This document shows positions 13,572-18,454 of a stretch of 64,000 nt of DNA, in pieces; the stretch's first letter is position 1, and every line of letters begins with the position of its first letter. A program made the position numbers and the translations under genes. The stretch lies in IMG/VR virus record IMGVR_UViG_3300021256_000005. One strand, given 5' to 3'. The stretch comes from a virus. Under the pieces are notes generated by a model. The model saw nothing but the letters and a program-made list of their open reading frames with translations, had not been told where the DNA came from and did no database searches.

Positions 13572-13609
13572 ACAGTCTCCTTTTATAAATTTATGTTTGG
13601 TTTAAGAAC

Positions 13610-13638
13610 AGTATAATCCGGAATGGGGTTAAAGTCAA
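13610..13638 (-). promoter_or_regulatory. sigma70-type promoter for the helicase/RNAP operon
   Basis: Minus sense TTGACT (13638-13633), 17-nt spacer, TATACT (13615-10), about 40 nt upstream of the helicase ATG. Confidence 0.6.
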
Positions 13639-13662
13639 GAGAAAATAAAAATAAATTAAGTA

Positions 13663-13691
13663 TTGACAAAATTAAAAAGTTGTGTTATTTT
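13663..13691 (+). promoter_or_regulatory. weak candidate rightward promoter into the hub
   Basis: TTGACA (13663-68), 17-nt spacer ending TGT, then TATTTT. The extended -10 TG is present but the -10 hexamer is poor. Confidence 0.25.
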
Positions 13692-13787
13692 ATTATAATA
13701 TATATATATTAATTATATATTATATATATTTATATATTAATTATATATAAATTATATATTATTAATATAATATTATTACGTTTTATT

Positions 13788-13877
13788 CGGCAGTCGTGTC
13801 AACGACTGACGATAGCGTGACGTTGCATCGCAACGGAACGCGCCCCGCCGACAGGCGGCGTTGCCGACAGGCAACTG
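13788..13877. repeat. GC-rich palindrome island 1 (four adjacent hairpins)
   Basis: Hairpins at 13791-13808, 13815-13841, 13845-13858 and 13861-13874. The last two share a GACA loop. Confidence 0.85.
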
Positions 13878-13962
13878 TATAATAGTATTATATATATTTA
13901 TATTATATATAATATATATTATATTTATATATATATATATATTATATATTTATATTACATAC

Positions 13963-14038
13963 ACTTAGACAGCTACGCCAGTAGCTGGCTAACGGTGCTG
14001 GTATTGCGTAGCAATGCCTGCGCCGAAGCGTCGCAGAC
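13963..14038. repeat. GC-rich palindrome island 2 (three hairpins)
   Basis: cagctac-gcca-gtagctg 13970-13987; attgc-gta-gcaat 14003-14015; ctgcg...cgcag 14018-14036. Confidence 0.8.
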
Positions 14039-14389
14039 ATATATATTATATATATTATTATATATATATATATATATATATATATATATATTTATATATT
14101 ATACAATAAGATAATATATTTGTCAAGTATAAAATTATAATTATTTTAATAATATATTTAATTAAATATATTTAAGTATTATATTATATACTATATATTT
14201 AGTTAAATATATTTAAGTATTATTATAATATATAATTATTTATATATTATTATATATCACTGTATATTATTATATAATAATTAAGCACCATAGTTATTAT
14301 ATATTATATATTACTAATTACATACATCATCAATTACATACATTACTAATTACCAGAGTTATTATTTTATTATTGTTTATTGTTTATAT

Positions 14390-14462
14390 ACTTTTGGCTC
14401 CTTTTGCTAACGCAAAAGATCACCAAAAGTTCGTATTCCTTCGCAAGCGAAGAAATACGAGT
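14390..14462. repeat. GC-rich palindrome island 3 (nested hairpin plus 30-nt palindrome)
   Basis: acttttgg/ccaaaagt encloses ttttgc-taac-gcaaaa (14390-14430). A near-perfect palindrome spans 14431-14460. Confidence 0.8.
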
Positions 14463-15950
14463 GTAATATATATAAATAAATATATTATTATATTTATATT
14501 ATTATATATTTATTATATATTATTATATTATATATTTATTATTATTTATATTATTATATATCTATTATTCTGCTGAGTTATATTATATTAAACAGTGTGG
14601 TTGCTATATATTATTATTTATTAAATATTTTATCTATTACTTTATCTATCGTTTGTATTATTCATTCACACTATTGAATTGTTATTATATACCCATACAA
14701 CAACACACAGTCATTTTGTGCGCTGTTTTATATATGCAGTTTAATAAGTTTACCCTAAATTATTAAAACGTCTGTATAAGCCTAATAGATATGTTATTTG
14801 AGGTGTGCCTTTTTTGGCGGGTTCTATTTTGTTGCGTGCTAGTTCCTGAGCTGTTTAGTTTATTATTTAATCGCTGTTATTTGCGCCGCCAAATTATATA
14901 TACCAAACGTCCTGTATTTTTAGCGTGTTTGTATTTGTTTGGTTGCCTATTTAGTTTAGTGTTCTGTAAGATGAGACAGTAAACTATTTGGATGTTATAT
15001 TTAGTTATATATTATATTATATATTTATATATTATTGACTGTCCAATTATTTTTCTGCGCCTTGTATCTTTGTCGGCTTTGTTTTATATTATTACTACAG
15101 TATTTTATAGAACCGCTTGTCTGAAACATGCCTATATCTACACCTATTGATTGTACGCATGTTTTTATGACACCACCCTATAACTTTTACGTCTGAGAAT
15201 AAAAACGTCTATATGAGCGTTTTAGAGCATTGTATAATACATTGATGATTGTCTATGTGTTTTGTTTAGTTAAATAAATTTAATTAAATTTCTTTAAGTA
15301 TTTATTGGTGCGCCACTAGAAATATAGGCAGTATTTGACTGCTTTGTTTTGCGATGGTAAACTGTATTAAATAATTATTTGCGTGTTTTATTACCGCCTG
15401 CGAAATAGAATAATGTATATTTATTCATTGTTTATACATTTTGACTTGTTTGGTTGTTAATTTTTGCGGCTGTAATTTTTGGTTGTAGCCGTTAATGTTT
15501 GCGATGGTCTGTTTAATGTGTAAATATACCCCGCCTGTTTATTAAGTATGAGATCGCTGTTGGAGTACTTTTTTAATGTGTTTTGTATGTTATTTAGCTG
15601 AAAGATAGTTAAGCCATTAAGCAGTCAATTAGTTTAGATGATTGTTTTATGTTTGATTGAACAGAGCAATAGTGGTTGTTTCGTATTATTATATAGCACT
15701 TAAATGATTGCTATTGTTTTGCTGATGGTTTATTCTGCGTTATTAGACAGCTAATTAGTTGAGCAGATATATGCTAATTTGTCCGCGCTGTAATTAGTTT
15801 ATTTATTGGAGCAGTAAGTGATTTGCTAGTTCTATATTGCAGTTGTTTAGTCAGTGATGTTTGATGTTAAATTAGTTAGGTTCCTAACTAACTAGGTGCT
15901 AAGCCATTTTTGTGGCGACTGAGGGTGTTATTTTATATTAATTATATATA

Positions 15951-16235
15951 GTTACTAATTAGTTACTAGTATTTAGCGGTTGATAATATAGTGCAGGACA
16001 ATTGCCTAATTTATATGGTTACTTATTGGTTACTAATTATGTTGTTGTTTTATGCAGTGAGTGGATTCTATTAGGCGATTGAGAAGTTGATTCTGGCAGT
16101 TAATTATTATTGAATTAAGCCGCTGAATTACTTTATTTGATTGTTGTTTTGGAAGGTGTTATTTTGTGTTGATTCGAAATTATTAGGACGTGATGTAACT
16201 AATTGTAGTTACTAATTGGTTATTAGTTACTTATT
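15951..16235 (+). repeat. iteron-like direct repeats GTTACTAATT / GTTACTTATT
   Basis: GTTACTAATT at 15951, 16029 and 16208. GTTACTTATT at 16018 and 16226. Further variants (gttactag 15962, gtaactaatt 16195). All on the same strand. Confidence 0.7.
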
Positions 16236-17217
16236 AGGTATTAAGTATGTTGTTAGTTATTTATTAGTTACGTTGCGATTTATTTAGTTGCTTCTTAATT
16301 TATTTATGTTTTGTAATATTACTTATTCTGCGACTGATTAAGTATTGGGAAATTCATTAATCTACTGATTTTGTTATGGTTTCTAAGATATCTTCTGACG
16401 TAAAATTGGTTTTGATTAATAGTTAAATATATTTAATTATTTAGTTGAGTAGTTTTACGATTGCTGTATTGATCTGATTGTAGTTGGTAAGAAGTAATAT
16501 TATTGGCTGTTAGAACTATATGGTATTAGCAGAGTATATGATTGTTGTAGTTTAGTGGTTAATTTGTTGTGTTGTTTAATTATTAAACAGTGATTTATTT
16601 AGTAGCGAGCAACAATAAGTAATAAGTTTTTAGTTAGAGTGTTAATTAGTTGTAGTGCTGATTGAACACTGATGGTTTAGTAGTGATTTATTAGAGTGAT
16701 GATTGATTTATTTATGTTTTGGTAAATTTATTTGGTTTTTGTAAATAATTTTAGGTAGATATATTTAATTATTATTTATAATGACTGAGTTGGCAAGTTA
16801 TGAATGTTACTTGAAGTATTCAATTCATTTTAATAAGCCTGAGATTTTCTTGTGTCGATTTAACTTATTGAGAGTAGTTTTATAGGACGCAATTCTGATG
16901 GAACAGTTTAACAATAAGGCTACTTGATCGTTTAATTAATTAGTTAGTTATTAGGTTTTTAGTTTTTTAGAGATTGATTTAGTGGATAGTTATTTATTAA
17001 TGCGGGATTTGGTGAGTAGAACTTTTATTTAGTGAATGTGGCAGTTTGATAAGTAGGTGATGGTATAGGTTGTTAGTTAGTAATGTTGATTGGTGGTAGT
17101 GTTTATAGATTAGTGGTTATTTAGTGAATTAGTTAGTGATTGTTGCTGATGTTGATTGGTTGATAGTGTATTAGTTATGATGTTTGTTTGATTGATAGGT
17201 GTGATGGCTGTTTGTGG

Positions 17218-17384
17218 GTGAGTGAGTTATTTGGTAATTTTATTTGATTTTTTTGTAATTAGTTTTTGTTAGTTTCTTTAATAGTGAGTTATTTATTTGG
17301 TGAGTTTGTTGGATTTTTGGAATGTTAGTGAGTTTTTAGTGAGTTGGGAAGTGAGAAGGGTGAGATTTTGACGGGGTGTGTGAG
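17218..17384 (+). repeat. GTGAG direct-repeat array
   Basis: GTGAG at 17218, 17222, 17284, 17300, 17328, 17339, 17351, 17360 and 17380. The 17328-17360 group is spaced 9-12 nt apart. Confidence 0.75.
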
Positions 17385-17416
17385 TTTACCTCCATATAGC
17401 TATTTTAGCTTTACAC

Positions 17417-17503
17417 TTTTGTCAAAATGTATAAATAACCCCCTTTTGACGTCGGATAATAAAAATTACCCGACATGGCACTTTTTTGACATTTATGTCA
17501 AAA
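17417..17503. promoter_or_regulatory. operator-like TTTTGAC half-sites and palindrome
   Basis: ttttgtcaaaa 17417-27, ttttgac 17444-50, and the 20-nt palindrome ttttgacatttatgtcaaaa at 17484-17503. Confidence 0.5.
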
Positions 17504-17624
17504 ACTTAATAGTTAAATTTTTTTAACTAATTTTTTAATTATATATTATATATTATGCATAATATATTATATATCATATATTATATAAAATTATATTTGA
17601 CACAATATAAATTTCCAGAGCAAC

Positions 17625-17724
17625 AAAATACTTAAAAATCTTTAACCATTCCCATCCCATCAAAAATACTTAAAATAATTTAACTATTATTTTTGCTCTA
17701 AAAATACTTAAAAATTTTTAACTA
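17625..17724 (+). repeat. three 24-nt direct repeats at exact 38-bp phasing
   Basis: aaaatacttaaaa(t/a)-n-tttaac(c/t)a starts at 17625, 17663 and 17701, 100-200 bp upstream of the consensus promoter. Confidence 0.8.
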
Positions 17725-17821
17725 TCTCACCAGAACAAAAAATATATTTCATCAAATATAATTTGATACAACGTTATGCTGCACGTCACCAAACAAAAAA
17801 TAAATTTTTTCCAAAAACCTA

Positions 17822-17850
17822 TTGACACAACGCGATACTAGTGCTATACT
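17822..17850 (+). promoter_or_regulatory. near-consensus sigma70-type promoter
   Basis: TTGACA (17822-27), 17-nt spacer, TATACT (17845-50). First strong rightward promoter before the plus-strand arm. Confidence 0.75.
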
Positions 17851-17856
17851 ATAGTC

Positions 17857-18440
17857 AAGATAAAGATATAACTTATTTATCTTATCGTTCGGGCACTCTG
17901 CCCGCCCACCGCTATCACAGCGGGCGTACCTTGACAAGTTACCTGTTGGTAACTCATAAGATAGGAGAACACCGTGACGGGTGAACTCTGCCTATCGTTA
18001 GTTTGATAATTCTAACGCCTAAAAATTATCAGCCTATCTATAGGCGTAGTTTGCATACCCATGATAGGTTTACTATGAAATCGGCAACTGAAACCGTAGT
18101 TATGATAGAGTCGTTTAGACTCAAGTAGTCGGGTACAAGCCGAGTAGTAAATTGGGATTCATGGCAGACAAACTACAGCTATAGACAGGTGACTTACCCT
18201 TTGTATATGTGAGGGTGTCGGGCTTTTCGGGTGTCCCATCAATACATCCAGGACGAAAATCATATACCGAACAAAATTGTCAACCGACGTGCCAGGGGTT
18301 GAATGTTTGCGGACTCAGTGCGCTTAAATAGCAGATAAATTTACACCGCAACATTGGCCGCCTGGTATGTCGTTACCTTGTAAGTTGCTTTAATTGCATG
18401 AGTTTATCGTGCAATTAACGCAACTTATAAAGCGCAATAA
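17857..18440 (+). ncRNA. candidate ~590-nt structured leader or large ncRNA
   Basis: No ORF. GC content is higher than the surroundings. Many local helices: 17891-17903, 17909-17923, 17937-17954, 17960-17996, 18108-18122. An H-type pseudoknot arrangement lies at 18005-18046. A 17-bp terminal hairpin lies at 18381-18427. Confidence 0.4.
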
Positions 18441-18454
18441 AAAAGGAGAAAACT

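Follow-up and report, generated by a model that had tools for sequence, protein, structure and literature searches.

The hub, a 4883-nt gene-free region at positions 13572–18454 of a 64,000-nt stretch of viral DNA (the window; IMG/VR record IMGVR_UViG_3300021256_000005), is in our judgement the packaging-and-control centre of an SPbeta-like phage, a reading that we hold with somewhat better than even confidence. It would be the counterpart of the SPbeta yonP–yonR region, enlarged about five-fold. The right third of the hub is most likely an SPbeta-type packaging (pac) region followed by an early promoter and leader, and the left two thirds are an unusually large lineage-specific extension to which no function is assigned. 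Four observations carry this reading: the same position beside the RNA polymerase operon, a homologous terminase, a homologous core of ~100 nt, and a C-depleted array of the same polarity. The initial annotation did not recognise the region as a described element, which proved half right. Its GTGAG array, with the core and the position, matches the pac region of the SPbeta family, whereas we found no described counterpart for the 0.9-kb AT/hairpin tract or for the multi-kilobase C-depleted extent.

The hub is real and non-coding. It is the largest stretch free of open reading frames (ORFs) in the window, the next largest measuring 439–684 nt (7–11 times shorter), and it is bounded on the left by a UvrD-type helicase gene (11832–13571, minus strand) and on the right by a gene for a 191-aa protein (ATG at 18455, plus strand). 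Left of the hub, every ORF of 150 aa or more lies on the minus strand; right of it, all such ORFs lie on the plus strand save one (35367–35945), which is probably spurious and overlaps plus-strand ORFs. The initial annotation was thus correct that gene orientation flips here, that most other intergenic gaps are short, and that the region exceeds an ordinary divergent promoter region in both size and organisation.

The genome is that of an SPbeta-like phage of a gut Firmicute. The protein encoded at 9042–11822 (minus strand) carries PF05183 and is a YonO-type single-chain RNA polymerase, with relatives in SPbeta-group Bacillus phages, Enterocloster phages and Clostridium phage c-st. Further left lie YonJ, YonG and YonD domains and the terminase; the large terminase matches SPbeta YonF over its full length (45% identity, E = 4e-162) and the YonG-like protein matches YonG (33% identity, E = 1e-48). 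Right of the hub are early-type genes, encoding GmrSD_N, ArdC-N, DUF5688 and MrpR_N_CB (30511–31422, plus strand) proteins, a tyrosine recombinase, a DnaB-like helicase and a PolIII alpha subunit. In SPbeta the genes yonF-yonG-…-yonJ-yonK-…-yonN-yonO-yonP lie on one strand, followed by a divergent gap of ~950 bp and by yonR on the other strand. Restriction mapping and read coverage place the pac site of SPbeta-like phages (the “genome opening point”) in this yonP–yonR gap, with headful packaging towards the yonP side; the site is mapped only to the intergenic region, no sequence determinant is described, and the packaging machinery is unverified (bioRxiv 10.1101/2021.11.22.469490; PMC8270828). 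A peak of MrpR in chromatin affinity purification sequencing (ChAP-seq) lies at the yonP promoter (PMC10516654).

In SPbeta as in the window, the YonO RNA polymerase operon is immediately preceded by a divergent intergenic region, the terminase (YonF) and YonG are homologous, and an MrpR-type repressor is encoded. Each region also contains a C-depleted, G-rich array, equal in polarity, which terminates in GGTGTG … ATGTA-W-CCCCC, with A-tract, palindrome-rich DNA beyond the core. They differ in that the SPbeta region spans ~950 bp rather than 4883 bp, has no counterpart of the window's 0.9-kb AT-only tract with hairpin islands or of its 600-nt structured leader, and is followed on the right by the Xre-like yonR where the window has the 191-aa orphan. 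Sequence similarity between the two is limited to ~100 nt. It is the SPbeta position and the core homology that make a pac region and an early promoter with leader the best reading of the GTGAG-array and promoter/leader zones.

The conserved core (GGTGTG … TTACAC … RTGTA-W4-9-C5+) lies at the 3′ end of the window array. It reads GGGGTGTGTGAG…AGCTATTTTAGCTTTACAC…AATGTATAAATAACCCCC in the window, GGTGTGTGG…AGCTAACTTTTAG…GTTACAC…AATGTAAAATATCCCCCCC in a Brevibacillus prophage, and GGGTGTGG…GATGTAAATATACCCCC in SPbeta (core tag ATGTAAATATACCCCC). Across 614 kb of fetched loci, the pattern RTGTA-W(4-9)-C(5+), written [AG]TGTA[AT]{4,9}C{5,}, matched only the sites in the window, SPbeta, BUCT082 and the Brevibacillus prophage. 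Every one of these sites has 80–93 G and 13–23 C in the 300 nt upstream; among 114 IMG/VR control sites of a degenerate motif, none is C-depleted upstream (0/114, maximum skew 0.35). Alignments of 130 nt anchored on the motif gave z scores of 8.6 for SPbeta–Brevibacillus, 7.9 for window–Brevibacillus, 5.3 for window–PMBT24 and 3.5 for window–SPbeta. These sequence comparisons lead us to conclude that the pac-proximal element of SPbeta-family phages has its homologue in 17345–17443 and the array preceding that core; the homology to PMBT24 is weaker.

Arrays of the same polarity precede the motif in each lineage. In the window, 16851–17400 has a skew of +0.94 and its G-rich strand is antisense to the RNA polymerase gene; the corresponding arrays lie at 12251–12550 in SPbeta (L026; 300 nt, skew +0.67), 201–550 in BUCT082 (L016), 251–800 in PMBT24 (L015; −0.97 on the RNA polymerase strand) and 2601–2950 in the Brevibacillus prophage (L040). 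They share composition across lineages (C 4–8%, G 26–31%), and in all of them the G-depleted complementary strand barely folds, with a mean minimum free energy (MFE) of −2 to −10 kcal/mol per 150 nt versus −18 to −27 kcal/mol for coding controls; for the complementary strand of 16951–17325 the MFE is 0.0 kcal/mol. The window array is G+T-rich and extends left for 2.2–2.8 kb, whereas those of the other phages are A+G-rich and 300–550 nt long (300 nt in SPbeta).

PMBT24 offers a more distant comparison. Like the phage in the window it is a siphovirus of a gut Firmicute with a YonO-like RNA polymerase and a distant large terminase (26% identity), and it has a virtually C-free, same-polarity array of ~550 nt, after which come ACCTC… and, ~250 nt from the pac cut, a C-run. 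Unlike that phage it is virulent, its array lies 9 kb from the RNA polymerase gene and carries a variant motif (GTACCCCCC), and its non-coding region is only ~1.1 kb. Classical pac sites resemble the hub in architecture. In SPP1 (pacL-pacC-pacR) and P1 (pac flanked by repeated hexamers), a central cut region is bracketed by short protein-binding motifs in repeated copies, together with bendable AT-rich DNA. These sites lie in or near the packaging and late gene block, usually in or beside the small-terminase gene, and are 160–300 bp long with no strand-composition skew. SPP1 and P1 pac have no sequence similarity to the hub, and SPbeta likewise lacks similarity to SPP1 pac (PMC8270828).

In BUCT082 the C-run is separated from the record start by 198 nt; in PMBT24 it is separated by 251 nt from the pac position, which was called by PhageTerm and serves as position 1 of that record (PMC11035940). 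By analogy, these distances place the predicted terminase cut at ~17640–17695, inside the 38-bp-phased repeats. In the packaging-and-control reading, the terminase, probably with YonG-like and HU-like proteins, would assemble on the array, core and palindromes at ~16.85–17.76 kb. The cut would fall within the group of three 38-bp-phased palindromes, ~200–250 bp rightward of the CCCCC run. Headful packaging would then run leftward; because it would start beside the C-depleted block and move in that direction, the block and the AT tract would be the first DNA packaged, and they would probably serve as the terminal redundancy that allows recircularisation. Host RNA polymerase would carry out rightward early transcription from 17822 through the 600-nt structured leader and leftward transcription of the helicase–RNA polymerase operon from 13638. 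The scattered 16-bp TTAAA-N4-TTTAA palindromes would be operator-like sites, for which the MrpR-like repressor or a packaging or partition protein are candidates.

Several points weigh against this reading. The core statistics are partly circular, since the pattern was designed after three sites had been seen and the alignments were anchored on it, and unanchored Smith–Waterman alignment of the whole hub to the SPbeta intergenic region did not score above shuffles. The arrays share no k-mer motif beyond composition, and nothing in them marks a common binding site. Both the position of the cut and the direction of packaging are carried over from other phages, among which the choice of the BUCT082 record start is not clear and the direction of PMBT24 packaging relative to its array is not plain from the paper's text. 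Relatives with 46–56% RNA polymerase identity (L005, L007, L010–12, L030–42) have neither a large gap nor the motif beside the polymerase gene, so the arrangement is not universal in the wider family. Finally, a pac site needs a few hundred base pairs, which leaves 2.8 kb of C-depleted DNA and the 0.9-kb AT/hairpin tract unexplained.

There is also a bolder proposal, which we regard as possible and rather improbable. In SPbeta-like phages, whether of Bacillus, Brevibacillus or gut Clostridia, the C-depleted “runway”, neither strand of which can fold, would be an undescribed functional module of headful packaging or recircularisation, here grown ten-fold into a gene-free terminal-redundancy zone of ~4 kb that is flanked by the hairpin-island tract and by a new RNA of ~600 nt. 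The ~100-nt core and the C-depleted array together provide a testable candidate pac determinant common to Bacillus, Brevibacillus and uncultured gut phages. Their signature could be used to orient metagenomic genomes of the SPbeta-like family and set their start, to predict which DNA SPbeta-like phages transduce, and to explain why assemblies break at this point. The hub is a natural exaggeration of the element that could ease its functional dissection, and it adds a candidate structured leader RNA. If it consists only of a pac site, promoters and filler DNA, the result would be useful for annotation and unsurprising.

The initial annotation had distinguished at least five successive zones, and scans of composition, repeats, folding and promoters recovered all of them (Table 1). 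From left to right, GC content is 14–18% at ~13.7–14.6 kb, a T excess starts at 14.6 kb, and GC skew rises from +0.3 at 15.2 kb to between +0.87 and +0.94 at 17.0–17.4 kb before reversing sharply at 17.45–17.9 kb; GC content is normal (40–45%) from 17.9 kb. That annotation had named alignment to relatives as a check on which zones are conserved. Two contigs of a second phage lineage from another sample (Logan SRR29381473) confirm the hub edges: L004 (94% identity over the late genes) is collinear across 13572–13789, a segment that takes in the left promoter region and reaches into island 1, and L013 is collinear with 16159–19043 at 79% identity, which includes the hub from 16159 to 18454. The relatives at 46–56% polymerase identity, as noted, lack a large gap. 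Zone identities to L013 exceed that of the adjoining coding sequence, which indicates that parts of the hub are more constrained than the neighbouring gene.

Table 1. Features of the hub, from left to right, with their support and their identity to the second-lineage contig L013 (strand cells are empty where no strand applies)
Feature	Position	Strand	Support or remark	Identity to L013
Sigma-A-type promoter TTGACT-17-TATACT	13610–13638	−	Consensus scan 10/12; both hexamers kept in L004; putative function	
Promoter-like site TTGACA-17-TG..TATTTT, overlapping TTAAAA-16-TATAAT	13663–13699	+	Faces into hub; one spacer substitution in L004; putative function	
AT-only tract, GC 14–18%, (TA)n-like low-complexity repeats	13690–14600		Assemblies break within it (13789, 13839, 13871)	
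GC island 1: four hairpins (loops GTCA, ATC, GACAG, GACA) and an outer closing stem	13776–13882	+	Fold	
GC island 2: three hairpins (loops GCCA, GUA, …)	13958–14042	+	z −4.0 (+), −1.75 (−)	
Candidate promoter, perfect TTGACA-17-TATAAT, leftward, inside AT tract	14098–14126	−	12/12 consensus	
GC island 3: two long hairpins	14384–14466	−	−39.6 kcal/mol, z −7.8 (−) versus −28.7 kcal/mol, z −7.0 (+)	
Transition zone: T-rich, GC ~30%, little GC skew; motifs AAACGTC, TGCGCC, TTCTGCG	14600–15200	+		
C-depleted G+T block, C 4–9%, skew +0.3 to +0.94 rightward	15200–17400	+	Composition	80–83% (from 16159)
GTGAG array, nine copies, right end of C-depleted block	17190–17390	+		
SPbeta-family core (~100 nt): GGGGTGTGTGAG … AGCTA … TTTTAG … TTACAC … ATGTATAAATAACCCCC	17345–17443	+		
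Segment from core to upstream of early promoter	17384–17760			92%
Segment of 112 nt	17464–17575			100%
Palindrome TTTTTTGACATTTATGTCAAAAA, 23 nt	17482–17504		Within 17464–17575	100%
Palindrome TAGTTAAA-TTTT-TTTAACTA, 16-bp [C/G]TTAAA-N4-TTTAA[C/G] type	17510–17529			
AT-only palindromic tract, 69 nt, centre ATGCAT (17555–17560)	17530–17598		Kept in L013 except for a 7-nt indel	
Three 25-nt repeats at 38-bp spacing (17625, 17663, 17701), each with CTTAAA-N4-TTTAAC	17625–17725	+		
Palindrome ATCAAAT-ATA-ATTTGAT, upstream of early promoter	17751–17767		Kept in L013	
Early promoter TTGACA-17-TATACT, extended −10 TG	17822–17850	+	11/12 consensus	
Structured 5′ leader or non-coding RNA, ~600 nt, into 191-aa gene (ribosome-binding site AAGGAG, ATG 18455)	17857–18454	+		87%
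Coding sequence adjoining hub				78%
TTAAA-N4-TTTAA sites in hub	14162, 14203, 15270, 15284, 16423, 17513, 17632, 17670, 17708			

Symmetric elements crowd the segment 17384–17770. Besides the palindromes of Table 1 they include AGCTA-TTT-TAGCT and TTTTGTCAAAA, and the hub also has TTTTGACA palindromes. Nine of the ten occurrences of the 14-bp TTAAA-N4-TTTAA palindrome in the window fall in the hub, against 0.1 expected from local dinucleotide-preserving shuffles, and those covered by L013 are conserved. They look like sites for a dimeric DNA-binding protein. They are nearly confined to the hub, whereas SPBRE, the MrpR operator, is dispersed, and we detected no dispersed operator-like repeat common to the hub and other intergenic regions.

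The C-depleted block extends over 2.2–2.8 kb in total. It is collinear in L013 from 16159 on, with many indels and with islets that are kept at 100% (for example 16703–16778). Fourier analysis of the block detected no helical or other periodicity, and neither strand has excess RNA structure (z ~0). We prefer to see in its non-folding strands a substrate for protein loading or for strand annealing at recircularisation; alternatively, a leftward transcript of the block would be an ideal Rho substrate and would keep read-through out of the RNA polymerase operon. The idea that the array consists of Chi sites protecting DNA ends was considered and rejected, as the SPbeta array lacks the B. subtilis Chi (AGCGG) on both strands.

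At the left edge, the promoter at 13638–13610 probably drives the leftward operon of the helicase and the YonO-like RNA polymerase. The GC islands within the AT tract are strongly structured and several of their hairpin loops read GNCA. Island 1, the start of which is kept in L004, folds with −50.3 kcal/mol (z = −4.4 on the plus strand, −3.4 on the minus strand); as RNA, the plus strand gives the better fold for islands 1 and 2, the minus strand for island 3. By analogy with N4, it is conceivable that the tract supplies hairpin promoters for the YonO-like polymerase; a replication origin or small RNAs are also conceivable. The AT/hairpin tract and the 2.2–2.8-kb array extension are lineage-specific.

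At the right edge, both hexamers and the TG of the early promoter are conserved in L013, where the spacer varies. The sequence that follows folds with an MFE of −206.7 kcal/mol (z = −7.7). We projected the MFE structure of the window sequence onto a two-sequence alignment with L013 and counted seven pairs in which both sides had changed and 12 in which one side had changed, pairing being kept in each case; 13 cells, each being one sequence at one pair, were unpaired. A slid partner yielded no compensatory pairs and 7 of 500 shuffles reached the observed count. No U-tract follows the last leader hairpin, and transcription is therefore expected to run on into the 191-aa gene. An Rfam 15 search of 13400–18700 at E <= 5 returned only two chance matches to pestivirus untranslated regions in AT-rich DNA, and a search of SPbeta, PMBT24, Brevibacillus and L013 returned nothing relevant. 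At the gathering threshold the only match is a full-length ROOL RNA (RF03087, 300 bits) at 4133–4690 (minus strand), in the late operon between the YonJ-like and YonG-like genes. A new structured 5′ leader or non-coding RNA at 17857–18454 is plausible, as far as two sequences can tell. Like ROOL, GOLLD and long structured 5′ leaders it is about 600 nt long, strongly structured, phage-borne and marked by compensatory changes, in a genome that also has ROOL. Unlike ROOL and GOLLD it has no Rfam match at E <= 5, it runs into a gene without a terminator, and only two sequences of it are known.

These RNA features raise an alternative that we consider unlikely and still deserving of weight, namely that the hub is mainly a non-coding RNA locus. 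It might yield one long C-poor transcript running rightward, several small RNAs transcribed from promoters within it, or a leftward C-rich, G-poor, unstructured Rho-loading transcript that insulates the late operon; in each case 17857–18454 would itself be a functional RNA. The structured leader with its compensatory changes is consistent with such a locus, as are conserved promoter-like sites facing into the hub (13663, plus strand; 14126, minus strand; 17822, plus strand) and the MFE of about 0 for the minus strand of the block, which fits a Rho-loading RNA. The strand-biased folding of the islands suggests G-U pairing and hence a role at the RNA level. The phage carries ROOL, and the YonO-transcribed late operon of SPbeta starts with an unannotated non-coding RNA (PMC5467207). 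However, the G+T block has no excess structure on either strand, there are no Rfam matches in the hub beyond chance, and promoter-like sites are not enriched across it (31 found versus 38.9 expected). Covariation in the leader involves two sequences only. In addition, the pac-adjacent arrays of SPbeta and PMBT24 are A+G-rich rather than G+T-rich, which makes DNA composition the property that the lineages share.

A replication origin in the hub, which we find rather doubtful, would be compatible with a pac region there. The AT tract would unwind, the GC hairpins would prime or load, the phased palindromes would be iterons, and replication would proceed outward along both gene blocks. Gene orientation and cumulative GC skew both switch here (minimum at ~14.6–14.75 kb), although the skew switch is confounded with the orientation flip itself. 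The 0.9 kb of 14–18% GC, the stable hairpin clusters and the three 38-bp-spaced repeats beside an AT-only palindrome are also in keeping with an origin, but the AT tracts and three phased repeats, which suit an iteron-type origin, also fit a pac site. A helicase gene adjoins the hub, yet it is of UvrD type and not an initiator, and neighbouring genes have no initiator domains; the replication genes (DnaB-like helicase, PolIII alpha subunit, AAA_24 and PD-(D/E)XK nuclease) lie 26–34 kb away. DnaA boxes are absent from the hub, where none of the 25 one-mismatch matches in the window falls. No origin of an SPbeta-like phage has been mapped for comparison (none is mentioned in PMC8270828), and the homologous core and array track pac sites rather than origins. 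For an origin function, at which the initial annotation had hinted, the data argue neither way.

It is very unlikely that the hub is an assembly artefact, with low-complexity AT and G+T sequence collapsed, expanded or joined chimerically in a short-read assembly and its size or order therefore wrong. A 77,231-nt ENA contig (L001/L008) contains the window as its final 64,000 nt and is consequently not an independent copy. The two differ by a single-nucleotide polymorphism at 14176 (G in the window, T in the ENA copy), which is the last base of a TTAAA-N4-TTTAAG palindrome. All other contigs examined break at the hub edges: L004 at 13789, and contigs with identical flanks at 13839, 13871 and 18307. 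The middle of the hub (13871–16159) comes from this one short-read assembly and has no second source. Against an artefact stand the collinearity of the second lineage over 13572–13789 and over the right G+T block, pac core and leader, and the low-complexity yet non-repetitive nature of the G+T block, which an assembler is able to resolve. In addition, look-ups report three contigs of 20–50 kb and two of 50–200 kb for both flanking proteins, which may indicate that several assemblies span the hub. AT tracts like that of the hub may break assemblies of related phages: the scaffold with the closest GenBank RNA polymerase (MT835481.1, L029; 31.5% identity) breaks off in a (TA)n tract (L029, 1–60) that lies ~180 nt upstream of the RNA polymerase operon. 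The break at 18307 belongs to L009 (6.7 kb, Logan SRR873596), which is otherwise identical and starts within the structured leader in DNA of normal complexity, an unexpected spot for an assembler break that may mark a strain-variable boundary.

A reading of the hub as decayed or unconventional coding sequence, with pseudogenes or many small translated ORFs, is hardly tenable. As the initial annotation stated, there is no credible ORF in its 4883 nt: ORFs inside it reach only 40–67 aa, the four of 60–67 aa lying at 14373–14576, 14791–14982, 17344–17526 and 17752–17937, each of the six frames holds 121–151 stop codons, and gene callers placed no genes there. All three stop codons are common in every frame, so stop-codon reassignment would open no reading frame and is ruled out. 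Of 36 indels relative to L013, seven are multiples of three and 29 are not, and of the two ORFs that can be compared 17752–17937 is disrupted; both facts argue that the hub is non-coding. The other, 17344–17526, is uninterrupted in L013, but it has five nonsynonymous versus two synonymous changes and no ribosome-binding site (Shine–Dalgarno).

The lineage is rare. The 191-aa first early protein occurs in only three clusters among 5.8 billion proteins, and identity to the window RNA polymerase falls from 98% to 56% after one relative. Neither megablast nor blastn matched the hub or the leader to any of 50,697 phage records. No relatives came from IMG/VR searches that used the helicase or the 191-aa protein as query. 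Exact-pattern scans of IMG/VR (pac palindrome; leader segment) gave only chance matches in coding DNA, and scans of JGI metagenomes (pac-core 22-mer; leader 20-mer) gave none. A GTDB genome scan with the RNA polymerase profile yielded 13 loci, none with a comparable gap (0/13) and one, the Brevibacillus (reuszeri) prophage, with the array and motif. Clostridium phage c-st and Enterocloster phage CB457P1 were inspected and were uninformative for the hub. In c-st (L043, 170855–172633) a UvrD-like helicase lies upstream of a split YonO homologue, so the helicase–RNA polymerase pairing recurs in distant family members. The 191-aa protein itself has no Pfam or PHROG matches, and its AlphaFold model (mean predicted local distance difference test score, pLDDT, of 68) has only generic coiled-coil matches to the PDB in Foldseek; it offers no clue to a hub-binding factor.

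Other parts of the genome have features of separate interest. MrpR, the master repressor of SPbeta, has a recombinase fold. The MrpR_N_CB protein of the window lies near a genuine tyrosine recombinase (31974–32930, plus strand), which suggests SPbeta-type lysogeny control in an uncultured gut phage. The GmrSD_N, ArdC-N/MPTase-PolyVal and DUF5688 proteins at 24103–27537 (plus strand) are anti-restriction or anti-defence-like and are followed by an Xre-like helix-turn-helix protein (27653–27997, plus strand). A T4-type RNA ligase gene (41332–42492, plus strand) lies directly upstream of the sole tRNA gene, tRNA-Gln(UUG) (42628–42701, plus strand), and the two could form a tRNA-repair module. In SPbeta, the yonK–yonN gap (L026, 7153–8835) is 1.7 kb of gene-free DNA of normal GC content inside the late region, with a DUF3800-VIII RNA match (47.5 bits) at 7410–7475; it looks structured and corresponds to the reported unannotated non-coding RNA of the late operon.

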